Assembly (NCBI GenBank): GCA_052327205.1
Contig: CM126207.1
Span: 82,522,001-82,586,000 of the forward strand
Length of the DNA: 64,000 nucleotides
From: Somniosus microcephalus
Taxonomy: Eukaryota
Direction: 5' to 3'
Shown piece by piece: positions 21,617-53,593 of the stretch. A model generated the notes under the pieces. That model had not been told where the DNA came from and made no database searches. It saw only the letters and a list, made by a program, of their open reading frames with translations. A program made the translations under genes and the position numbers. Each line of letters opens with the position of its first letter. Within the stretch, counting starts at the first letter, position 1.

Positions 21617-22320
21617 GACATAAGAAATAGTAGCAGGAGTAGGCCATTTGGCCCCTCAAGCCTGCTCCATCATTCAATAAGATCACGGCAGATCTTCTAC
21701 CTCAACTCCACTTCCCTGCACTATCCCCATATCCCTTGATTCCCTTAATATCCAAAAATCTATCGATCTCTGTCTTGAATATACTCAACGACTGAGCTGC
21801 CACAGCCCTCTGGGGTAGAGAATTCCAAAGATTCATTACCCTCTGAGTGAAGAAATTTCTCCTCATCTCAGTCCTAAATGACCGACACTTTATTCTGAGA
21901 CTGTGACCCCTAGTTCCAGACTCCCCAGCCAGGTGAAACATCCTCCCTGCTGCAACCATTTTAAGCCCTGCAAGAATTTTGTATGTTTCAATGAGATCAC
22001 CTCTCATTCTTCTAAACTCTAGAGAATATAGGCCTAGTCTACTCGATCTCTCCTCATAGGACAATCCCCCCATTCCAGAAATCAGAACCTTTGTTGCACT
22101 CCCTCTATGGCAAGTATATCTTTCCTTGGGTAAGGAGACCAAAACTGTACACAATACTCCAGGTGTGGTCTCACCAGGGTCCTATAAACTTGCAGTAAGA
22201 TGCCTTTACTCTTATACTCAAATCCTCTTGTAATAAAGGCCAACATACTATTTGCTTTCTTAATTGCTTGCTGTACCTGCATGTTAATTTTCAGTGATTC
22301 ATGTACAAGGACACCCAGAT
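21617..22320 (-). mobile_element. CR1 LINE 3' fragment
   Basis: LVRPHLEYCVQFWSP; RMRGDLIETYKI. Confidence 0.92.
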
Positions 22321-22771
22321 CCATGGATTTCATCCTGATACTATTCTAATTTAGAGATGCATACCCGAGGATGATCGTTGGATTGTATTCCTTTTGTCTC
22401 TGTCTCCCTCTCTGCCTCTGCCTGTGTCTCTGGCACACACACAGTCATACTCTCATTGGAGTGCTTGGAAAGAATTTTCTTGTATTACGCTGGTCTGCTC
22501 TGTTGCTATTTCCTGTAAATTAAGGAAACAAAAATTGAGGCCTTGCATGTAGCATGGGGTGGGAGAAATGATGAGGCTATTGTAAGGAGGAAAGTCTTCA
22601 AAGGTGGCAGGGCTCTGTATACCAGTTTTGGATGATTTAATTCACTGAAAAGAATTCGGCCTCATCAGACAAAGAACGACGAGGAGCGTATCAAAGATAA
22701 ATAATCCAACTTTCCAGTTTGTGCAGTTTTATAAATGCGGTCACAAAAAATGTGTGTTTCAGTGAGCATTC

Positions 22772-22777
22772 TTTATT
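22772..22777 (-). promoter_or_regulatory. Candidate polyadenylation signal of the nested gene
   Basis: AATAAA on the minus strand ~290 nt after the stop, followed by a T/GT-rich tract. Confidence 0.55.
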
Positions 22778-23064
22778 AATAGATAGCAGTGCCACTTTCA
22801 CTGATGGAACAAATTGTTGAGATTATCAGTGGTTTTATTAATCTGACATTAAGGTAGTTCACTGGCTTGAGTGCGGCTTCAGTCTCGTGTACCATTTAAA
22901 TATGTTTTTTATGGCAGTAGTGGAAAATATAATTGGAAAATTTTAAGACAACATTTGAAGCAGCAGTGTTGCATTCATTGTTAGCTGCAAGTTTCAGTTA
23001 ACTTATGTGCTACAAGTACATTGGGAAATATAAATGTGACTAGTCCTATATGGGTGGTTAGCAC

Positions 23065-23532
23065 TCAGTTCATGGAAAAACCTTCCATAGCTGACCCTTC
23101 AACTGTTTCAAATGCTGATCCTTCAAGTCTTTCAGATTCTGATTCTTTGTATCTTCCAAATCCTGATCCTTCGAGTCTTCCAAATTCTGATTCTTCACGT
23201 CTTCCAAATCCTGATCCTTCGAGTCTTCCAAATTCTGATTCTTCACGTCTTCCAAATCCTGATCCTTCGAGTCTTCCAAATTCTGATTCTTCACGTCTTC
23301 CAAATCCTGATCCTTCGAGTCTTCCAAATTCTGATTCTTCACGTCTTCCAAATCCTGATCCTTCGAGTCTTCCAAATTCTGACTCTTCACGTCTTCCAAA
23401 TCCTGATCCTTCGAGTCTTCCAAATTCTGACTCTTTAGAAAAACTTTCCCATGGAGGAGGCAAGCAAAAGTATTTCACAGTCACTGATTGTTGGGGGTTC
23501 CACATCACCCACATATGGCAAGTGATTATTTC
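23065..23532 (-). CDS. Nested latexin/RARRES1-family gene, exon 6 (EIITCHMWVMWNPQ...KYFC + repeat tail)
   Basis: aacag acceptor; EII-C-W-P-VKY-C matches the RARRES1 last exon; open for 155 aa to TGA; spliced CDS totals 1131 nt. Confidence 0.9.
   Translation of the reverse strand, partial: EIITCHMWVMWNPQQSVTVKYFCLPPPWESFSKESEFGRLEGSGFGRREESEFGRLEGSGFGRREESEFGRLEGSGFGRREESEFGRLEGSGFGRREESEFGRLEGSGFGRREESEFGRLEGSGFGRYKESESERLEGSAFETVEGSAMEGFSMN
23146..23433 (-). repeat. Coding 48-bp tandem repeat x6 (two 24-bp subunits), plus degenerate copies down to ~23075
   Basis: tcttccaaatcctgatccttcgagtcttccaaattctgattcttcacg unit repeated almost perfectly. Confidence 0.97.
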
Positions 23533-23658
23533 CTGTTTAGGGCAGAAAAAAATAGCATTACTTGCCAGAACATGTAATTGATGTGCTGGCACTGATCATT
23601 GTGAAAGGGATTGGAATAGTCTCTAGATATAATCAGTTTATTTCTTTGATTAATTTAC

Positions 23659-23721
23659 CTGGGTTGGCAACTCGTGGAGAAGAACTGTATAGGTAAATTG
23701 AAGAAATTTGTCTGCCCTTAC
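23659..23721 (-). CDS. Nested latexin/RARRES1-family gene, exon 5 (VRADKFLQFTYTVLLHELPTQ)
   Basis: ttccag/gtaaat; 63 nt; YTVLLHE.xTQ motif. Confidence 0.92.
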
Positions 23722-23817
23722 CTGGAAAAAGAGTTGTTTAGTTATTAAAACATTTAATGAAAATGCCACTTTACAGATATGTTCAGTGATGAGAAGATAT
23801 TTATTTTGATTTCTTAC

Positions 23818-23954
23818 CCATTGATTAACTTTCTGTATTTGAGCCATGTCATACTTGAAGATTTCAGTGGATTTTTCCCACATGATGTAGCTGGCACTAA
23901 CTTTTGCCAGGTGCCAGATTGGCATCATTTTAGGGTCTACAAATCCAAAATTAT
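23818..23954 (-). CDS. Nested latexin/RARRES1-family gene, exon 4 (DNFGFVDPKMMPIWHLA...YIMWEKST...KVNQW)
   Basis: ctcag/gtaaga; 137 nt; completes the IPDNFG inhibitory-loop motif. Confidence 0.92.
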
Positions 23955-24101
23955 CTGAGATGCAGGGAGATAAAAAGGCAGTTTTTGAAAAAAAATTGAA
24001 AATCATATTAAGGGTTCTTCTTGAATATTTTGTAATTCTGAAAATCAACTTGATAACTTTAATTAAACTGTTAAGTGACATGGCTAGCTGAAACTTCATA
24101 C

Positions 24102-24273
24102 CCGGAATATTGTAGCCAACCATGGGGTTCCTCTGCTTTTTCAAATTGAGGTAAAATTTATTATCTTTCTTGAAGCTGTCTTTCTTAAGGTCTTTCAGAT
24201 TGCACTTTAGAGTTGTGTCTGGATTTTTTTTCTTGTTGTGGAAGAGTACATTAGCTATACAGATGCCAGTACC
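24102..24273 (-). CDS. Nested latexin/RARRES1-family gene, exon 3 (GTGICIANVLF...DNKFYLNLKKQRNPMVGYNIP)
   Basis: cacag/gtatga; 172 nt, phase 1; DNxFY..LK..P...NIP pattern of the family. Confidence 0.9.
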
Positions 24274-24479
24274 CTGTGGTGAGAAACAGTTATTATAATT
24301 TTGAGTTTAGTTCTTTGAATATTACTTGCATCCTGTTTATTCATTCAAGACAAGGGTAACTGGTCATTTTAGTTTAGCTACTTATATTTAAATGGACAAT
24401 GAAAGATACTGTAACTCTGTCACTTAATTCTCTGTTGCCAAAAATACATTATCAAAAGCAGAAGATATAAAAGACAGAA

Positions 24480-25159
24480 GGCCTAGAAATTGGGTTGAGG
24501 CGCCAAGTTCGCCTGAGCGCAGGATTTAGTGCAGCGTCCGAGTCTTCAGCGATCGTCCGATATTCAGTTTCATTGCCCCCTAGAGGGAGACGGGGCGAGG
24601 CTCGAGGCGCTCCGCGTCCCTCTTAGGGCGCTGAAACTGAATATCGCAGTGCAACGTGCCGCAGCGCCACACGCTGCGGCACGGCACGCTGCGGTACTGC
24701 AGGCCTTCCTCCCATTGTTAAGGGGGAGGGGCCTGCAACAGCGCGATCCCCGATCGCGAATGCCGGCAAAAGAGCCTGGCACCGAGGAGAAGTGCCGGGC
24801 TCTCGGGGTAACAGCCGGCAATGCCGCGGGGGGGGGGGGGCGGTCAGGAGGCCGGGGACGGAGGTGCTGGCAGGCGGCCGCCCCGCACCTCCACCTTAAC
24901 TTGTGCCGCTGCCGGCACAGTAAGGCCCCGTGAACCGGGCGCGGGTAGCGAACGGCGCAACTGCGGCGTTCGCAACTAAATATCGTGAATGGGGCGCTGC
25001 GCACACCAATGACGTCATCGGTGGCGGCGCAGCGCAAAAGGCTAACGCCACCATTATCGCCCCAAATCAGTATCGCGGGAGGCGCAGCCAGTGGCGCTAC
25101 AGCCACTGCCTGCCTCTTTAGGTGCTAACAAGTGGCGCTACTCACCCAATTTCTCCCCC
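24480..25159. mobile_element. GC-rich Harbinger-type MITE, family A, in intron 2 of the nested gene
   Basis: TIR core AGAAATTGGGT/ACCCAATTTCT; internal similarity to 5998-6694. Confidence 0.8.
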
Positions 25160-25238
25160 AGAAGAGTTTAGTTGTGGGTTGTTTTGGACAGTGAATGTTG
25201 CTTATAAGACATGACCCTGTTATCACTATTCTACTTAC

Positions 25239-25307
25239 ATTTGAAGAGCTTTCTTCATTTTTCACTTCAAATTCAAGGTGGTACTTGTGTCCTATATTTG
25301 AAGTCAC
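25239..25307 (-). CDS. Nested latexin/RARRES1-family gene, exon 2 (VTSNIGHKYHLEFEVKNEESSSN)
   Basis: tctctctccag acceptor, gtaagt donor; 69 nt; GHKYHLxF matches latexin. Confidence 0.9.
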
Positions 25308-27060
25308 CTGGAGAGAGAAATATTTTGTTGGTGTGGGTTTATGTTAAGTCAGTCTTGATATTAACAGTAATGTGCACAATCCAGTATGCATTAGTCACAA
25401 CAGTAAAAGGAACAAACATAGCTGAAGAGAAAACCAGCAAGTAGGGAAGGGGCATGTCTTTATAGTTTGTATAGTTATAGCTGCTGTTTTATTTATGTTT
25501 ATGCTTGAGAATTCCGTCATTGTTCAATAGCAAGTTCTGGCAGGACTCTACCATCATTTTAATTTGAAGTGCGGGTGTGAAAACACATTGCACAGATTTT
25601 TGATAAAGAAGGAAAGAGGCAAATTAATTTACTCTCTTCCTGAGCGTGTATATTTTTTGCTGTTTACTATAAAAACCCACTGAACAGATGCAAAGTAGGG
25701 GCAAATAGTCGCACTTCCCATCTTGTACTCAAATTACTCATTTAACTGCTCCCAGTCAGAATTTTGTTTCTATGAATCAAGCAAAACAAATGTTTGTGGG
25801 AGATCTCCTACAACTTCTTTCAGTGCAGATCAGCACCTCATCCTCATTTTCACATCTCTACCCCACCTTGTACCATAACCTCTGACTCGCACCCTAAAAT
25901 ATTTCAAGATTATGAGCATATCAGAGTTCCAGTAAAAGCTTCTGAACTTCTTTTATGGTTTATAAATGTGTTTGAATCTCTTGGTAAGATTGCATTCTAA
26001 TTACTCCTGATAATTTTTATCAGTTGTGAAACAAATTCAGAACGACAAAGAAAACAGTGTGGAATAATTTTTGTATTCTATACAGTTGACCACGAGGCTG
26101 TCCCAATATCCTGACTACGGTAGATAGCATGGATGATTGGATATTCATTTGGTTATTAAAATACAAGGGAATAATATGACGGTAGTAAAGTTTAAACAGA
26201 CAAATTGATATAAAGAAGACTTGTTGAAAAATTGGCATTAAAGCTTAAGAAAATTTGTGCAATGTTTGAGCTGGAACAATGGACATATACTGTAACATTT
26301 GGTTTCATCACTTAGATTTATAAGATGGAACTTTAAACAATATTTAAGGGTTGAAAATATGTGAGAAAGTTCATAGTTTCTAAGTGCCATGAATTAGAAT
26401 ACAAAATGTTTTTTGTTCTGTTAAACAGCCCAGCCCACCCTGACCTTTGCAGGATAGAGGGGTTTTGGCTTTTCTCCAGTTATTGGTACCAGCAAAACTC
26501 TTGGTTTAAGCGTAGATTTTTTTAAAAACTGATTATATGTACTATTTTAGAATGGAATAAATTGAAACTGTTAAAATCTGAAAGCTCCAAATCTACCACC
26601 TATCTTTCATAAATTACAAAATACGCAAGCTAAAGTCGCTGATATAAACTAGCAAGCATAATGTAAGCTGCTTTTGCTAAAAATTGATTATTGGAAATTT
26701 AGATATGGTCGGCTCCTGCATTACCGTGTTATTAAAATGAATGTATCTAGCTTTCTTGCGTACAGGTTCCAATTCAGCAACTTTCCAATAAACAAAGGCA
26801 TTTTCCATCTCCCTGTTCATGTGCTTTGCATTTTAATTCTGTCCTTCTAGTTTGTAACTGGAATATGTTGTACGAAACATATAACTAATACTTGTTTTTC
26901 AGTTTAGCAGCAGCAGCACATTTGCATTAATTTTCTATTTAAATTTTTATAGCATGCAAAAGCATGTATTAAGGACACCAAAAAGCTCTCTTGCTTTCTG
27001 AACTTTCTTCTAATTGTAAGTTTTTAAAATTTCTTTTACTTGTACTGTCTTCCTATTTTT

Positions 27061-43200: not shown

Positions 43201-44136
43201 CTACTCTATAGTTCATAAGAAATAGGAGCAGGAGTCGGCCATACGGCCCCTCAAGCCTGTTCAATAAGATCATGGCTGATCTTCGACCACAATTCCACTT
43301 TCCCGCCCGATCTCCATGTGCCTTGATTCCCCCAGAGTCCAAAAATCTATCTATCTCAGCCTTGAATATATTCAAAGACTCAGCATCCACAGCCCTCTGG
43401 GGCAGAGAATTCCAAAGATTCACAACCCCCTGAGTGAAGAAATTCCTCCTCATCTCGGTCTTAAATGGCTTAACCCTTATCCTGAGACTATGCCCCCTAG
43501 TTCTAGACACTCCAGCCAGGGAAAACAACCTCTCAGCATCTACCCTGTCAATTCCCTTCGCAATCTTGTATGTTTCAATGAGATCACCTCTTATTCTTCT
43601 AAACTCCAGAGCGTATAGGCCCATTCTACACAATCTCTCATCATAGGACAGCCCTTTCATCCCAACAATCAATCCAGTGAACCTTTGTTGCACCGCCTCC
43701 AAGGCAAATATATCCTTCCTCAGATAAGAAGACCAAAACTGTGCACAGTACTCAGAATTGTCTCACCAAGGCCCTGTACAATTGTAGCAAGACTTCCTTA
43801 CTCTTGTACTCCAACCCCCTTGCAATAAAGGCCAACATGCCATTTGCCTTTCTTATTGCTTGCTGTACCTGCATGCTAGCTTTCTGTGTTTCTTGCACAG
43901 ACACCCAAATCTCTCTGAACGCCAACATTTAAAAATTTCTCACCATCTAAAAATTATTCTGTTTTTCTATTCTTCCTACCAAAGTGAATAACCTCCCATT
44001 TCCCTACATTATACTCCATCTGCCACCTTACTGCCCACTCACTTAGTTCATCTATATCCCTTTGCAGACTCTCTGTTCTCCTCACAGCTTACTGTCCCGC
44101 CTAGCTTTGTATCGTCAGCAAACTTGGATACATTAC

Positions 44137-44390
44137 TGTAAAGTCTGTGAGTTGTTTAGTTAATTAATACACAGACTACCAGAGTAACTTAAAACAGGAC
44201 TTTACTATTCGAAGGTCAGGGCGAATCTGCCAAATAAATCCTGACACAGCACTTATATACCGGTGTGGTCACCGTCGGTATTACAGTATACAGAAGCCAA
44301 CAAAGTAGTGCCACACCTAAAATAGTTCTCTTAAAGGTGAACGGTTACATACAATGGTTTTCTTAAAGGTAGACGGATACATACACTACA
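44137..44390 (-). repeat. 3' LTR (254 bp)
   Basis: TG...CA ends; TATATAA and AGTAAA on the minus strand; PPT aaaaagggagg adjacent at 44393-44403. Confidence 0.96.
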
Positions 44391-44493
44391 ATCCTCCCTT
44401 TTTAGCTTACAACATACTTAGTCCCCATTAAACATAACATATATTCAACTTCATGTAAAACAATTCACAGGTATAATCTATGCGGGAAACAGT

Positions 44494-44750
44494 TTACAGA
44501 TTCAGTCTCTGCGGGAACAGTTCACAGATTCAGTCTCTGGTCTTGACTCGGTCCGAACAACATCTCTGTGGTGTAGCTGGTTCACATTGCTAGCGTGACT
44601 CATCCAATAGTCTTTCCCTTGACTTAACAGCTTGAACTTCCGTCCTGCTGAACCAGCAGTGCTGACTTTTACAAACAGCTGGACTGCCTTGGTAATTTTT
44701 CCTACTTGCCAACTGATTTGGCTCCCTTCGTACGGCCCACGTACATGATC
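44494..44750 (-). pseudogene. Degenerate integrase C-terminal remnant
   Basis: VRGPYEGSQISWQVGKI and a duplicated QRLNL* resemble the end of Gypsy pol. Confidence 0.45.
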
Positions 44751-44780
44751 TGGTAGAAGTGATAATGATTTAGATGGTTA

Positions 44781-46238
44781 TCACCTTCTGCTTCGTCTTT
44801 TTCTTTTCTGCTTCTTGGAGACTCTCGGGGCTCCCTTATCAGCTGCCAGCTGTAGCGCCACCATCTCCCTATGTTCCTTAGACTTTAAGTGCTTCATCCT
44901 GATTTCTGCACTTTGGGAGTTTTCATCACAAGCTGGGCAGACCAAGTCCTCGTAATATTCTGTGTCACTCAACAGGTCATGGTAATATTCGGTGTCGTCC
45001 TGAACTAGTCTAGCGAGAGGGCCTGCTACTTCTTCCTTACCCAACTGGACGTTAGCCGACTGTTGTTCCCTCCCTAGACATCTTTCCTGAAGAGACTTCT
45101 TCATGCGTTCATATTCATCCCGCTCTTCCTGGGTTTCCTGCAAATCTTTCACTAATGACCTCATTTGTGATTTCAATACTTCCCCTTCCATCGGGGATTG
45201 ATTGATCGGGCTATTCAATCCTTCTACTGGAGCAGCTGTTTCAACATTCTGTTGTTCACATAGACGTGATTCAGCGTACTTTTGGGATCCCAGTAAAATC
45301 TGTGTTGCAACCTCAGCTATTTCCATAACTTTTGAGAGCTCCGAACTCCTTCCCTTTGAAGATTGAAGCTCGTGTTCAGATTGTTCCCATTGCAGAGTCT
45401 TGTCCCTCAGCATATGAAGGAGTTGGCTGACCGTTAACTCCTCCACGGGAACACTGTGGATCAGCGTCTTCTCCATTTCATCCACCTTTTCCTCCAATGC
45501 TTTCACCTTCTTTTCCTCTTGTACTTTGGCTTTCAGCGCTCTGAGAAGTTGCGCCTTGATGCTCTCTAGCTCATGTTCAGGGGCCATTCTTACAGTCTCT
45601 GTGTTTCTTACAGTTTCCTTTTCTTCCACTGAAAGGATTCCCAGTTGAATCTGTTCTTCAAGTTGTTGAACCTCGGTCATTGCCGCCTCATATTTGTCTT
45701 GGGTTTCCTTCAATATTTTTATGAGTTCTTGGACATCTTGTCTTTCATGTTCTGCCATGTCTTTCACCTCTAATTTCTCATCTATGGATGGAACTTCTAC
45801 CGATGAGTCTGTCTTGGCCTTGAGCTCATCAAGAATTTCCTGCAGCCTTTGGACTTCTTGCTCATGTTCAACCTTTAGTTGCTCATATGCTTCTACTGAA
45901 ACTAGCTTTTTGGAGGTTGCTGAGTTAATCCCCTCCAGGATTGTAGCCTGGGCCTGTTCATACTGTTCCTTCAACTTCTCAAACTCTGCTTGTAAGGAGT
46001 CGTAGAGAAGAACGGGAATAAAATCCTGGCTTCCTGAAGATTCCTCTTCATTTGCTCCTTCCTGCAAATATTCTAACTCCTGAACAGCATAAGGGAGATG
46101 TGATCGGTAATTGGTCACAATGGCTCTATGGTCGCTCTCTGCTTGAGCTAGCTGCTTCTGTTGTCTTTCCAGATTCTCCCATTCGGTGTCATAGAACTTT
46201 TTCATTGTTTTCATCTCTTGTTCGAGACGGTAACTCAC
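44781..46238 (-). CDS. 485-aa chimeric cargo ORF: ANKRD24/RAI14-like coiled coil + optineurin-like coiled coil + DNAJC21-like zinc finger and basic tail
   Basis: Uninterrupted ORF where pol should be; no RT/RH/INT motifs; recalled matches YRSHLxYAVQ, IPxxLYDSLxAEF, EELTVSQLL, MKKxLQExC, DLxCPACD...HREMVAL. Confidence 0.8.
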   Translation of the reverse strand: MSYRLEQEMKTMKKFYDTEWENLERQQKQLAQAESDHRAIVTNYRSHLPYAVQELEYLQEGANEEESSGSQDFIPVLLYDSLQAEFEKLKEQYEQAQATILEGINSATSKKLVSVEAYEQLKVEHEQEVQRLQEILDELKAKTDSSVEVPSIDEKLEVKDMAEHERQDVQELIKILKETQDKYEAAMTEVQQLEEQIQLGILSVEEKETVRNTETVRMAPEHELESIKAQLLRALKAKVQEEKKVKALEEKVDEMEKTLIHSVPVEELTVSQLLHMLRDKTLQWEQSEHELQSSKGRSSELSKVMEIAEVATQILLGSQKYAESRLCEQQNVETAAPVEGLNSPINQSPMEGEVLKSQMRSLVKDLQETQEERDEYERMKKSLQERCLGREQQSANVQLGKEEVAGPLARLVQDDTEYYHDLLSDTEYYEDLVCPACDENSQSAEIRMKHLKSKEHREMVALQLAADKGAPRVSKKQKRKRRSRR

Positions 46239-46253
46239 TTGTTCTACTTGCTG

Positions 46254-47159
46254 TCATAATTTGAAATAAAGTTGAGTCCGAGCTCGGTGTTCGTCAGTCA
46301 TGGATATGTCCGTAAACTGAACAGACTCAGAATTCTCTGTCAAACTATGTTGTCGTTGTTCGGTGGAGTTCTGTTCTGAAACTTTGTTCTTCTCTGGAGC
46401 ATAAGCCTTTATGCATGCCTTCGTTCTTCCAACCTTAGTCGGCAAGTCCATTTTAGCCTTGTCTTTCATATTTGGGTTGGTCTTATCGGCATCCGTTTCA
46501 GAATCTGAGCTGATTGTCTGCACCGAGTCCTCACTCGTTATGGCTTTTAGATAGTGCCATTCCATGTCTATTTTCTTGATCCACTCCCATCCCAGAAGTG
46601 GTGGTCCTCCCTCAGGTAGTACGTATAAGTTCATTCTTGGGTGTTCTTTACCCCCATCTCTCACCTTGACTCTTATCTTCCCCATGGGGTATACGTTATG
46701 CCCCGTGTATGTCTGCAATACGAACTTGGTATCTCTTAAGGGTATATGTGAGAATAGCCGGTGGTAATCCCTTCGATTTATGACTGATAGAGCTGATCCA
46801 GTGTCCAACTCCATTTTCACTTGGACTCCAGCTATTTTTAGCATGACCCAGATAGTTTGTAGGTCAGCTTCCTTACTCACATTGTGAATTCTCAGACTGC
46901 CCAGCTCCTGGCCGTTTGGGTCTGAGTCCGAATTCTGTTCGTCTGAACTCTTCTCAGCCACCTTGTGTACCTTGTTGTACTTTCCCTGTGATGGCTTCCT
47001 TTGGTTGTTGGTCTTCTTCCCTGACCGGCATACCTTAGCTATGTGACCCAGTTTGCCACATTTCCTACATTCCTGGTTCTTAAACCAGCATTGGTTTTGG
47101 TCGTGTGTTGTCTTCCCACAACGATAGCATTTTGTTGTACTCGAGGTAATTTGATCCAC
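46254..47159 (-). CDS. Gag zinc knuckles + aspartic protease + linker
   Basis: Two CCHC knuckles (CYRCGKTTHDQNQC, CRKCGKLGHIAKVC); LDTGSA catalytic motif; LLGWEW. Confidence 0.92.
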   Translation of the reverse strand: MDQITSSTTKCYRCGKTTHDQNQCWFKNQECRKCGKLGHIAKVCRSGKKTNNQRKPSQGKYNKVHKVAEKSSDEQNSDSDPNGQELGSLRIHNVSKEADLQTIWVMLKIAGVQVKMELDTGSALSVINRRDYHRLFSHIPLRDTKFVLQTYTGHNVYPMGKIRVKVRDGGKEHPRMNLYVLPEGGPPLLGWEWIKKIDMEWHYLKAITSEDSVQTISSDSETDADKTNPNMKDKAKMDLPTKVGRTKACIKAYAPEKNKVSEQNSTEQRQHSLTENSESVQFTDISMTDEHRARTQLYFKL

Positions 47160-47686
47160 ACTGAGTGCCGCTGCATTTCCGCAGTTCCCTTCGCTGCGGC
47201 TTCGTGCGATGCTGCAATAAGGACAGCCCTGTCAAGTGTAAGGTCGTTCTCTTCGAGTAGTCGCTTTTGCGTTCCTTCCTTTGACAACCCGCACACGAAC
47301 TTGTCTCGCAATGCCTCTGTCAGATTCCCTCCAAACTGGCAGTGTTTCGCTAGTCTATGCAGTTCGACCAAGTATTCTGCGTTGCTTTCGTCTTTCCTTT
47401 GCGTTCTCGCATAGAATTTGAATCGTTCCGCCAACATCAACGGTGTGGGGTTCAAGTGATCCTTCAGAACAGTCACAATATCATCGAAAGTCTGATCCGC
47501 CGGTTTAGCTGGTGCTAGTAGATGCTTCAAGAGCCCGTATGTCTTCGCGCCCATCGAGTTTAGCAAGGTTATAGCTTTGTCATCTTCTATTTTATTGGCC
47601 TCACAATAGATCTCAATGCGTTCCACATACGTGGCCCAGTCTTCTACCTCGGAATTAAAATCGTTGATGTTACCACGCTTAGGCAT
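47160..47686 (-). CDS. gag: Gag capsid region
   Basis: W..Y.ER....EAN, AERFKF..R.Q, LRDKFVCGL motifs of Mag-type Gypsy gag; frameshift near 47160. Confidence 0.9.
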
Positions 47687-48739
47687 CTTCCTCTCTTCCT
47701 GATAACACCACGAATTATTTCTTTAAATTTTCTTTTATTTATTAATTAATTTTTTCCAAGATGGCGGTTCCCGCGAAAATGGCGGTTTCCCGCGCTTATC
47801 TTCTCTCCCCGCCCACTTCAATGGCGGTTTCCCGCTTCTGTCTTCTTCCCCGCCTAATGGCGGCTTCCCGCGTTTCTTCCCTAGCGGGAGGGGTACACTT
47901 TCCCCACGGGCGACGGCCGCTGGCTTTCAGGTTCACAGCCTGTGCGTCGGCTTCAGGGCTTTCCCTTTTCTCGGCAGGGCAACCGGCACTGGGTACACCC
48001 CGTTGATGGCGAACAGTTTCAGCCGCTGGGCTGGCTCTCGCTCAGTTCCCCTTGCTCGGGCTCTGTCTCTCTCCCGCTCGCTCGGCTCTACCGGCGCTGG
48101 GTACACCCCGTTGACGGAGAACAGTTTCAGCCGCTGGACTGGCTCTCGCTCAGTTCCCCCTTGGTTGGCTCTGCCTCTCCCACTCACTCGGCTCCCAATC
48201 GCGCCTCCCAGCCCTCTCGCAGTCCGGTGCTTCCCTCCCCGGCTGCGGCTGAGTTTATCTCTTCCCGCGCCTACGCTCCCGGTCGCAGCGCTTCGTGGCT
48301 TCAGTCGCTGCCCGGCCTTTTTCGCCGGTCGCGGTCTAGCTGTCTCACAACGCCGTTGCGTCCCCCAGCCTGTCTGTACCGCGGCTTCCTTGCTCCACGC
48401 TGCCCCAGTCTCAGCGCCTCTGGACCCGACTTCTGTCCGGCTCCTTTCCCCCTCGACCGTGGTCGAGTGCACCGCCCTTATCCTCCGGTTATTCTTTTTA
48501 CTTTCCCTTACTCACAGTCACCGTGGCCGCCTTGCTTCTCGTGCTGATCGGCTCACTCCTCACCGTGGCAGAAGGGACAGTCAGTGCCTGTTGCTGATGG
48601 AAGTCTTTGTCTCTAACTTCTTCTTCCTTTCTAGTTCTGCAACCTCGAGTTTTCTCCCAGCAGAACGACGAGGGCGGTTGCCTCTTCTCGACGCTCGTTA
48701 ACTGCTTCGGAAGTATTGTTGCCGCAGGGTACGATCGGA

Positions 48740-48749
48740 CTCGTCGCCA
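48740..48749 (-). other. Primer binding site TGGCGACGAG
   Basis: Begins TGG one nt inside the 5' LTR; common Gypsy PBS. Confidence 0.85.
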
Positions 48750-48750
48750 C

Positions 48751-49004
48751 TGTAAAGTCTGTGAGTTGTTTAGTTAATTAATACACAGACTACCAGAGTA
48801 ACTTAAAACAGGACTTTACTATTCGAAGGTCAGGGCGAATCTGCCAAATAAATCCTGACACAGCACTTATATACCGGTGTGGTCACCGTCGGTATTACAG
48901 TATACAGAAGCCAACAAAGTAGTGCCACACCTAAAATTATTCTCTTAAAGGTGAACGGTTACATACAATGGTTTTCTTAAAGGTAGACGGATACATACAC
49001 TAGA
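48751..49004 (-). repeat. 5' LTR (254 bp)
   Basis: Differs from the 3' LTR at 3 positions by eye, including one in the terminal dinucleotide. Confidence 0.96.
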
Positions 49005-49798
49005 ATTACAGTCAGTCCCTTCATCTAGATCATTAATATAGATTGTAAATAGCTGATGCCCCAGCATTGATCCTTGCGGCACCCCACTAGTTATAGCCTG
49101 CCAACCTGAAAAAAGATGTTTATCCCTACTCTTTTTCTGTCTGTTAACCAATCCTCTATCCATGCTACTTTATTATGCCCAATCCCATGAACTCTTATCT
49201 TGTATAATAACCTTTTATGTGGCACCTTATAGAATGCCTTTTGGAAATTCAAATATACTATATCCACTGGTTCCCCTTTATCTACCCTGCTAGTTACATC
49301 CGCACAAAACTCTAATAAATTTGTCAAACACGATTTCCCTTTCATAAAACCATGCTGACTCTGCCTAATCATATGATTTTCTAAGTGTGCTGATACCACG
49401 TACTTAACAATAGATTCCAGCATTTTCCCGATGACTGATGTCAGGCTAACTGGCCTGTAGTTCTCTCTCCCTCCTTTCTTGAATAGCGGTGTTACATTTG
49501 CTACCTTCCAATCTGCTGGGACCATTCTACAATCTAGGGAATTTTGGAAGATCAAAACCAATGCATCCACGATCTCTGCAGCCATCTCTTTTAGAACTCG
49601 GATGTAGGCCGTCTGGCCCAGGGGTTTGTCGGCTTTTAGTCCCATTAGGTTTCTCTAGTACTTTTTCTCTACTTATATTCATTATGTTAAGTTCTTCACC
49701 CTCATTAGACCCTTAGTCCCCCACCATTTTTGGTATGCTTTTTGTGTCTTCTACTGTGAAGACACATGCAAAATATTTGTTTAACGTTTCTGCCATTT

Positions 49799-51949: not shown

Positions 51950-53593
51950 GCACCTCTCTGTAATTTCTCTGCAAATTTGCTCCTCCATATCTTTCTCACT
52001 ATTTGGTGGTCTTTAGAATACACCTAGTAGTGTAATGGCACCTCTTATTTTTTAACTCTAGCCATATAGATTCTGTCCTTGACCCCTCCAGGACATCCTT
52101 CCTCTCCAGCACCGAAACATTTTCCTTAACCAATACTGCCACACCACCTCCTATCTTTCCTGAACACCTAATTGTAGTGTATGTACCTTTAAGGGGAGAA
52201 CTACTTTTTACAGCTCCTGTATACTGTAGTACCGGCAGTGACCACACCTGTATATAAACCCTGAGTAGGGATCTGTACTGTTAGTTTTAGAGTAACCCTC
52301 ATCCAGTAAACACCTGTTGATTGTTCCTCTGCAGTCTCTGTCTATTTATTGAAGGACACCATACATCAAAATTCATGGATTTAACACTTATAACCAGGAA
52401 TATTTAATACCCAATCCTGCCCTTTTTTGAGCCCGATCTCAGTTATTGCCACAACATCATATTCCCATGTGGTTATTTGTGCCTTCAGCTCACTTACCTT
52501 GTTTACTACGCTTTGTGCGTTCACATACATACACTGTAAACTCATCTTAGACCATCCTGTATTCTCTCCTAATTTGGCCCCGCCTAATACCTTACTATTT
52601 CTTACTTTAGTGCACTCCCAATCCTTTGAGCACTTTATTTCCCCTTTCTAATGTTACATCCTGGTGCCCGTCCCCTTGCCAAATTAGTTTAAACCCTCCC
52701 CAACAGCACCAGCAAACCTCCCTGCGAGGATATTGGTTCCAGCCCTGTTGAGGTGCAACCCGTCCTGCCTGTACAGGTCCCACCTCCCCCAGAAGCAGTT
52801 CCAATGCCCCAGGAATCTGAAGCTCTCCCTCTTGCACCATCTCTCCAGCCACGCATTCATCTGCTCTATCCTTCTATTTCTATATACTCACTCGAGTGTG
52901 GCACCGGGAGTAATCCGGAGATTACTACTTTTGAGGTCCTGCTTTTTAATCTCTTTCCTAGCTCCCTAAAGTCTGCCTACAGGACCTCATCCCTCTTTTT
53001 ACCTATGTCGTTGGTACCAATATGGACCACGGCCTCCAGCTGTTCACCCTCCCCCCTTAGAATGTTCTGCAGCTGCTCAGAGACATCCTTAACCCTGACA
53101 CCAGGGAGGCAACATACCATCCTGGAATCACGTCTGTGGCCACAGAAATGCTTGTCTGCTCCCCAAACTAACGAATCCCCTACCACTAGTGTGCTCTCAC
53201 TCTTATTCCTCCCCCCTTGTACAGCTGAGCCACCTGTGGTGCCATGGACTTGGCTCTGGCTGTACTCCCCAGAGGAATCATTGCCCTCACCAGTACACAG
53301 AACTGAATATTGGTTGGAGAGCGAGATGCACTCAGGACTCCTGCACTATCTGCCTGGTCCTCCTCTTCTGTCCAGCGGTCACCCATTCCCTCTCTGCCTG
53401 CACACTCCTTAGCTGTGGGGTGACCACCTCCTGAAACATGCTATCCACGAAGCTCTCCGCCTCATGGATGCACCGCAGTGATGCCAGCTGCTGCTCAAGC
53501 TCCGAAACCCGGAGCTTGAGCTCCTCCAGCTGATGACACCTCCTGCACATGTGTTTGTCCAGGACATGGGAAGCATCCTGGATTTCCCACATG
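51950..53593 (-). mobile_element. CR1 ORF1 (SGNH esterase-like) and endonuclease fragment
   Basis: VGDSLV, VCCLPGVRV, VVHIGTND motifs. Confidence 0.88.
52173..52386 (+). mobile_element. Solo Gypsy LTR related to the 44137-49004 element
   Basis: TG...CA; CTAAT/CTTAT TSD; shares tgtagtgtatgta, cctttaag, ctgtatactgta, gtgaccacacc, tatataa with the reverse complement of the 254-bp LTR. Confidence 0.8.

Follow-up and report, generated by a model that had tools for sequence, protein, structure and literature searches.

How does a retrotransposon without the genes for its own reverse transcription and integration come to carry, in their place, a long open reading frame (ORF) built from pieces of several host genes? 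The question is raised by a long terminal repeat (LTR) element at positions 44137-49004, minus strand, of a 64,000-nt stretch of the Somniosus microcephalus genome (contig CM126207.1; "the window" refers to this whole stretch). The element belongs to a lineage that we take to be Ty3/Gypsy from its domain order. Its cargo was donated by four genes, STK10, ANKRD24, OPTN and DNAJC21, and for each of them the source exons, spliced in the element, were located in the genome's own gene. We think it likely that this non-autonomous lineage grew by repeated template switching onto packaged host RNAs, at least two of them circular, and that the cargo is mostly open-frame filler. The first-pass annotation of the locus had proposed serial capture of mRNA by template switching from three donors: the spliced pieces, the mid-exon joints on short shared words and the intermediates surviving in sister families uphold serial capture, whereas at least two of the templates look circular and a fourth donor, STK10, had been overlooked.

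The cargo had also been described as a separate stop-free ORF of 485 codons. It is indeed stop-free, but it runs for 490 codons from stop to stop (44781-46253) and forms the 3' half of a gag-protease-cargo frame, which in 17 of the 30 close copies (ranked by likeness to the window copy) extends as a single frame of 972 codons from its ATG. In the direction of reading, the cargo region of the window copy consists of the following segments, with nucleotide identities to the host genes:

46306-46536, minus strand: middle part of STK10 exon 9, 84%; putative remnant of the captured circle
46150-46295, minus strand: parts of STK10 exons 11 and 12, spliced, 80-90%; Pfam PF12474; holds the stop at 46254-46256
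46079-46145, minus strand: penultimate exon of ANKRD24, 66 nt, 97%; preceded by the end of the previous exon at a spliced joint
46078-46084, minus strand: ANKRD24 back-splice joint, where the donor of the downstream exon meets the acceptor of the upstream large exon
45437-46084, minus strand: first 643 nt of the large coiled-coil exon of ANKRD24, 97%
45027-45443, minus strand: four consecutive OPTN exons, spliced; three at 85-93%, the fourth via protein alignment and sister copies
44902-45026, minus strand: first half of a C2H2 finger with a 30-nt duplication; donor not found in the fetched host DNA, which has a 500-N gap there
44781-44901, minus strand: two spliced exons of DNAJC21, 84-94%; basic tail in native frame, then stop
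44599-44756, minus strand: start of STK10 exon 9, 78%; untranslated in the window copy; far end of the putative captured circle

The case for circular templates comes from the order of the exons. In the element the 66-nt penultimate exon of ANKRD24 stands first and ends exactly at its donor, and the sequence continues precisely from the acceptor of the large exon, which in the host gene lies 11.5 kb upstream of the 66-nt one; directly before the 66-nt exon there is an ordinary spliced joint to the preceding exon. What had been read as one ANKRD24 block is of ANKRD24 origin, but in two pieces and in reversed order. For STK10, the sister copies L052 and L053 run from the rest of exon 9 through exons 10, 11 and 12 and on into exon 8 and the start of exon 9, and their STK10 sequence is 96-100% identical to the host. 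At the reversed joint the donor of exon 12 abuts the acceptor of exon 8 exactly, the two sides having 2 nt in common, and the lap ends 14 nt beyond its starting point, the same exon 9 site being used for entry and exit. Together exons 8-12 amount to 1,245 nt and are stop-free when read. As far as the fetched host regions of these two genes extend, the element matches STK10 exons 8-12 and three exons of ANKRD24 and nothing else; each of six host exons checked is single in those regions, an element copy aside. Because the lap is closed and holds nothing outside exons 8-12, it is the product expected of copying a circle. We are confident that the STK10 template was a circular RNA (circRNA), and for ANKRD24 we hold a circular template to be highly probable.

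A pol-bearing relative, L137, is 97-98% identical to the STK10-only sister L053 in the LTR, gag-protease and integrase tail. In between, it carries a reverse transcriptase (RT) motif followed by an integrase motif, and at both entry and exit it has a short word in common with the same STK10 exon 9 site. Since the two elements share their flanks and the entry and exit words, about 3.3 kb of RT, ribonuclease H (RNaseH) and integrase appears to have been swapped for one STK10 lap. The entry-site pattern without its STK10 continuation gave 22 matches; 15 loci were examined, nine running into pol and six into STK10, which offers no support for an empty precursor consisting of gag, protease and tail. 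A further pol-bearing relative, L138, has a 1,353-codon frame with an integrase motif and no YLDD motif; it is shorter than L137 and is perhaps an internal-deletion derivative.

A search with PF12474 returned 16,569 candidates; 20 of the 150 listed were fetched, mostly picked for long frames, and these comprise at least 13 sister LTR elements and at least one unrelated locus. Among the sister families are forms carrying STK10 with an internal deletion, with or without immunoglobulin (Ig) domains, a shorter STK10-OPTN form, and an STK10-OPTN-DNAJC21 form that closes back into STK10 exon 8 in one frame; the window family has ANKRD24 added. Up this ladder of sisters the divergence of STK10 from the host rises as the cargo grows (about 1%, 2-3%, 5%, 10% and 15%), and ANKRD24, the last piece added, is the closest to its host gene. 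Joints between genes fall mid-exon on short shared words (pol/STK10 entry and exit, STK10/ANKRD24, ANKRD24/OPTN). The cargo is exchangeable, other sisters holding Ig domains instead. In L039-L045 and L056 the STK10 copy harbours several in-frame Ig I-set domains (Pfam E 2e-33), with PDB matches to titin and obscurin; we presume obscurin to be the donor. Between protease and STK10, L039 (2592-5717, minus frame) and L056 (2498-5740) have a further in-frame insert, about 150 codons long and bearing a C2H2-like motif.

We propose the following history. RT would have switched from a pol-bearing parent to a circle of STK10 exons 8-12, gone round it once and returned to the parent, an anatomy that is seen and a switch that we infer from it; the lap would thereby have come to sit just after the protease, where RT, RNaseH and integrase had been. 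Spliced pieces of OPTN and DNAJC21 would then have been acquired inside the STK10 copy, an order shown by the sister families, and finally a stretch spanning the back-splice joint of the ANKRD24 circle would have been inserted between STK10 and OPTN. Pfam scans of five window frames and of the 972-aa product of a natural copy found no RT, RNaseH or integrase family, as the first-pass annotation had stated, and because these are missing from the pol position we regard the element as a non-autonomous derivative. It would produce a single polyprotein of Gag, protease and cargo while borrowing RT and integrase from a helper. Variants translated nearly to the 3' LTR would be favoured while the residues themselves matter little, and the benefit of such filler may lie in shielding the RNA from nonsense-mediated decay or in a coupling of translation to packaging.

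The sequence comparisons suggest that selection acts mainly on the openness of the frame. Comparing a natural copy with the host exons, against a null that keeps the type of base change and CpG status, we counted 110 differences in 480 codons and no stops against 5.6 expected; silent changes in the cargo numbered 42 against 30.5 expected (p 0.009, omega 0.62). Among sister copies omega ranges from 0.34 to 1.03, with three of eight significant at 0.05 when the window family's 94% relative is counted, and between distant subfamilies gag-protease gives 0.30-0.36 (p 0.0002). Amino-acid constraint on the cargo is weak (omega about 0.6, and about 1.0 in one sister copy, against about 0.3 for gag-protease), and off-frame reading is tolerated locally, in the OPTN stretch and in DNAJC21 exon B of a sister. 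The idea that the chimeric protein was under selection survives for the open frame and much less so for the residues. Divergence from the host proteins, previously taken as a sign of such selection, does not serve as one: ANKRD24 is 97-98% identical to its host gene and the other pieces have diverged in step with gag-protease. A function for the chimeric cargo protein appears doubtful to us.

Several observations weigh against this account. The host circles are putative at the RNA level, reads across the joints being inseparable from element transcripts; the window family has lost the STK10 back-splice joint and retains the permuted order alone; and identity between this family's LTR and the closest pol-bearing relative reaches only about 82-86%. 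At the ANKRD24 joint there are 4 nt (mRNA) or 6 nt (pre-mRNA) of microhomology, which would permit a backward switch. Copies for the frame test were picked for intact frames and sister loci for long ones, biasing the frame argument; some of the differences arose in the host lineage and the tested copies are not independent. Close gag-protease pairs are without significant constraint (omega 0.75-0.79), and several tests give an omega below 1, which is compatible with a function at the protein level. The microhomology, together with the AG/G that exon ends share and the other routes to non-colinear joints considered by Dong et al. (2016, PMC4897178), could be accommodated if all templates were linear and the reversed orders arose through backward template jumps, trans-splicing or scrambled linear transcripts. 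We judge this very unlikely, as both reversed joints lie exactly at donor and acceptor, whereas the joints between genes fall mid-exon, and as the STK10 joint shares just 2 nt within one closed lap that overlaps at its ends and includes nothing beyond exons 8-12.

The same history of capture could have yielded a protein that serves the element: the coiled coils of STK10, ANKRD24 and OPTN might aid oligomerisation of the polyprotein or its entry into the particles of a helper, or might serve as decoys that divert host partners, for example the autophagy pathway of OPTN, and the basic C-terminal tail may localise the product or bind RNA. The silent excess in the cargo (p 0.002-0.011 in four of four copies, from the window family and its 94% relative and not independent), large indels that all keep the frame, basic tails recurring among different sisters via different routes, and transcription of the family with the read-through allele would all fit. 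We nevertheless find it unlikely, since the cargo varies among equally young families, up to and including Ig domains, and is read off frame in the OPTN stretch and sister exon mentioned above. A putative OPTN LIR motif is present in one sister and absent from the window family, the finger scores E 0.03 in the window copy against 5e-8 (zf-C2H2_jaz) in a sister, and two sister copies have non-significant omegas of 1.03 and 0.73. The open frame might instead be a by-product of youth, arising without selection from chance in-frame joins and codon-periodic microhomology; our loci were ascertained on long frames, and Tan et al. (2016, PMC5131818) report that 14 of 17 young LTR retrocopies in Drosophila hold in-frame ORFs, possibly owing to youth. 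This is scarcely credible here, where the STK10 and OPTN pieces are 10-15% diverged but stop-free, with compensated frameshifts. Returning to capture from circles with an open frame as filler, one can extend it to claim that Gypsy particles of the shark lineage package circRNAs often enough to make them a main source of captured sequence, that stop-free circles with a length divisible by three, such as STK10 exons 8-12, enter the polyprotein frame directly, and that selection maintains the Gag-protease-host chimeras as working parts in a family of thousands of non-autonomous elements. Back-splice joints occur in two of the four donors and the other two donors are uninformative; we give this extension little more than an outside chance, although, if true, it would amount to an exon-shuffling engine fed by circRNA.

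The family is large and young. In this 6.4-Gb genome, with nearest protein matches in sharks, the 1.9-kb cargo region has 3,184 candidates, and all 40 loci scored carry it at 99% or more, which excludes an assembly artefact. The 26-nt word across the ANKRD24 back-splice joint has 1,295 exact genomic matches (a control word has none), the STK10 joint word 842, and a marker word for the STK10-OPTN-DNAJC21 family occurs at 498 loci, host gene included. Eight full copies show 0-5 LTR differences per 254 and a matching 5-bp target-site duplication in seven, one of these with a mismatch; the few differences and matching duplications indicate that the family is young. The in-frame stop at 46254-46256 is present in five of the 30 close copies, which are related in a star-like manner; since the site is hypermutable and no other marker is common to all five, we rejected it as the mark of a replicating truncated subfamily. 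Protein searches turned up no such chimeric protein in other species, which is weak evidence.

The family is also transcribed. Two RNA runs labelled as the same species, of 16.7 million and 14.4 million records, placed 17,593 and 12,526 of these, respectively, on the internal region, covering all 30 bins in both. As reads were accepted from 93% identity, they report on the family rather than the window locus. One run is strongly one-sided, in the element-sense direction if the library is of the usual kind, and the other has both directions mixed. The stop allele is missing from 177 of 177 and from 96 of 100 reads over its site, and a sister joint lacking ANKRD24 was also found. Contigs under two other organism labels cover all 30 bins at high depth, with no single piece spanning the whole.

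The window copy sits inside a CR1-like long interspersed nuclear element (LINE) fragment, whose flanking halves are contiguous in other CR1-like copies. Its remaining features, read from 5' to 3', are:

44132-44136 and 49005-49009, no strand: target-site duplication ATTAC, in the CR1-like LINE fragment
48751-49004, minus strand: 5' LTR, 254 bp, one terminal base altered
48740-48749, minus strand: motif resembling a primer-binding site, TGGCGACGAG, recurring in sister loci
47025-47686, minus strand: gag with two CCHC knuckles, frameshifted in the window copy by a 10-nt deletion near 47175
46581-46847, minus strand: aspartyl protease with DTG motif (Pfam PF13650, E 1e-6)
44391-44403, minus strand: polypurine tract
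44137-44390, minus strand: 3' LTR, 254 bp

The two LTRs differ at 3 of 254 sites, and the earlier description as a young Gypsy element with LTRs, target-site duplication, primer-binding site, polypurine tract, gag and protease holds. The motif TGGCGACGAG presumably matches tRNA-Ser. Gag matches PF03732 weakly (E 0.003, below the cut-off), and Pfam also found the zinc knuckle. This copy is broken twice, by the deletion near 47175, whose frameshift is private to it, and by the in-frame stop. The 5' leader (47778-48179) contains a 90-bp tandem pair and three 32-bp repeats, and many read joints and indels map there. A PDB sequence search with the cargo returned two weak, uninformative matches.

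The STK10 donor was found through PF12474 at the start of the cargo, and its pieces span 46536-46150 and 44756-44599 in total. The linker after the protease, the cargo start and the stretch past the stop all have matches in host exons at C8:167.19 Mb, a locus with 62-88% identity to an unnamed STK10-like protein; the gene name and exon numbers are presumptive. Two paralogous STK10/SLK loci were excluded as donors, one of them only partly covered. The donor site of host exon 10 (rc 31319 from C8:167225000) is GC instead of GT, as the spliced joint in element copies confirms. An intron-less STK10-like 3' region with a 277-codon frame (L038, G000:C3:354658406-354658909) is unrelated to the element and probably a separate retrocopy.

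The ANKRD24 piece is 82% identical at the amino-acid level to a shark protein named ankycorbin or ANKRD24-like; coelacanth and reptile ANKRD24 (36-50%) outscore mammalian ankycorbin (34-36%). One ANKRD24-carrying copy of the family (L032, 96% to L002) has inserted antisense into an intron of ANKRD24 itself, at 22070-26961 of the host region, within the stretch of the gene that the captured circle covers. The OPTN piece, 59% identical in amino acids to shark optineurin, carries a compensated frameshift. Host OPTN exon B (region 53346-53375) is one base out of frame relative to shark proteins and element copies, through an assembly error or a real lesion. The DNAJC21 donor was located by a motif search, as a gene with intron-flanked exons bearing the motif; its name is our assumption from that motif. 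Protein search for DNAJC21 gave 89 candidates, none at E 10, the PDB search gave no match, the best score in an Atlas search (0.88) is a lead only, and synteny from RAD1 gave no match in 80 kb. DNAJC2, the only gene from a zuotin-domain search, has no match to the cargo. The 125-nt finger piece is probably the preceding DNAJC21 exon; in the host, the 500-N gap lies a short way upstream of the exon that matches. About 75 other loci (L091, L092, L093 among them) repeat the first coding exon of RAD1 with intron sequence (host G000:C40:6.87-6.88 Mb), beside a low-complexity tract and with no similarity to the element; these copies may represent another kind of capture or duplication.

The element had earlier been compared with gag-onc transducing retroviruses, which are defective, carry host sequence fused to gag and depend on a helper. 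By analogy the likeness would stand, but ours appears to be a different system: a Gypsy element, to judge from the domain order of its relatives, with no env family found by Pfam in the window frames or the natural-copy product, seemingly germline-inherited and amplified, and with donors not shown to be oncogenes.

Closer precedents exist. The main text of Tan et al. (2016, PMC5131818) describes LTR-mediated retrocopies across animals, in which spliced host RNA replaces internal ORFs with microsimilarity at the joints and some chimeras join several genes. Our family resembles these in its intron-less, sense, in-frame cargo within the internal ORF, in the microsimilarity and in possible non-autonomous spread. 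The cases in that text are few-copy or small sets, whereas the present family exceeds 1,000 copies, shows captures nested in series whose intermediates survive, and joins gag, protease and cargo in a single frame; 'circular' and 'circRNA' do not occur in it. In the text of Dong et al. (PMC4897178), circRNA-derived pseudogenes have no poly(A) and include 33 copies of mouse circRFWD2, around which LTR sequence is enriched; their mechanism "remains mysterious". As there, our captures lack poly(A), our reversed joints lie exactly at splice sites and nothing of the parent gene beyond the exons of the circle was found in the fetched regions; unlike there, where the LTR link is one of association, the circle is inside a defined element with a parent, entry and exit microhomologies, a full lap and a translated frame. 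Maize Bs1 is an LTR element with three captured host-gene segments and a chimeric ORF that is transcribed and translated (review PMC13317346); it is a plant element, and the review text searched makes no mention of circRNA, whereas our family lives in a vertebrate, draws on four donors and has several sister families among which the cargo is interchangeable. Abrusan et al. (2013, PMC3597677) report host-protein fragments captured in Gypsy and BEL proteins, some under purifying selection; 'circular' and 'non-autonomous' do not occur in the main text. We found neither circRNA capture inside an LTR element nor this family in the titles and abstract openings of the literature searched, with supplements, Repbase and most subscription papers outside its coverage. 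LTR gene capture and circRNA-derived pseudogenes are each already known; what is new is probably the capture of circRNA by an LTR element, with the anatomy of its junctions and mass amplification.

Because the parent, the host genes, the switch points and the intermediates share one genome, the route, switching of an LTR element's RT onto a packaged circle, can be read and tested, which addresses the route of circRNA retrotransposition left open by the study of circRNA-derived pseudogenes (PMC4897178). Copies of the element would be a DNA record of circles once present in the germline. Finally, with a frame of about 1,000 codons held open by host cargo that can be exchanged, this large vertebrate family offers a natural experiment on what keeps non-autonomous LTR elements translating.

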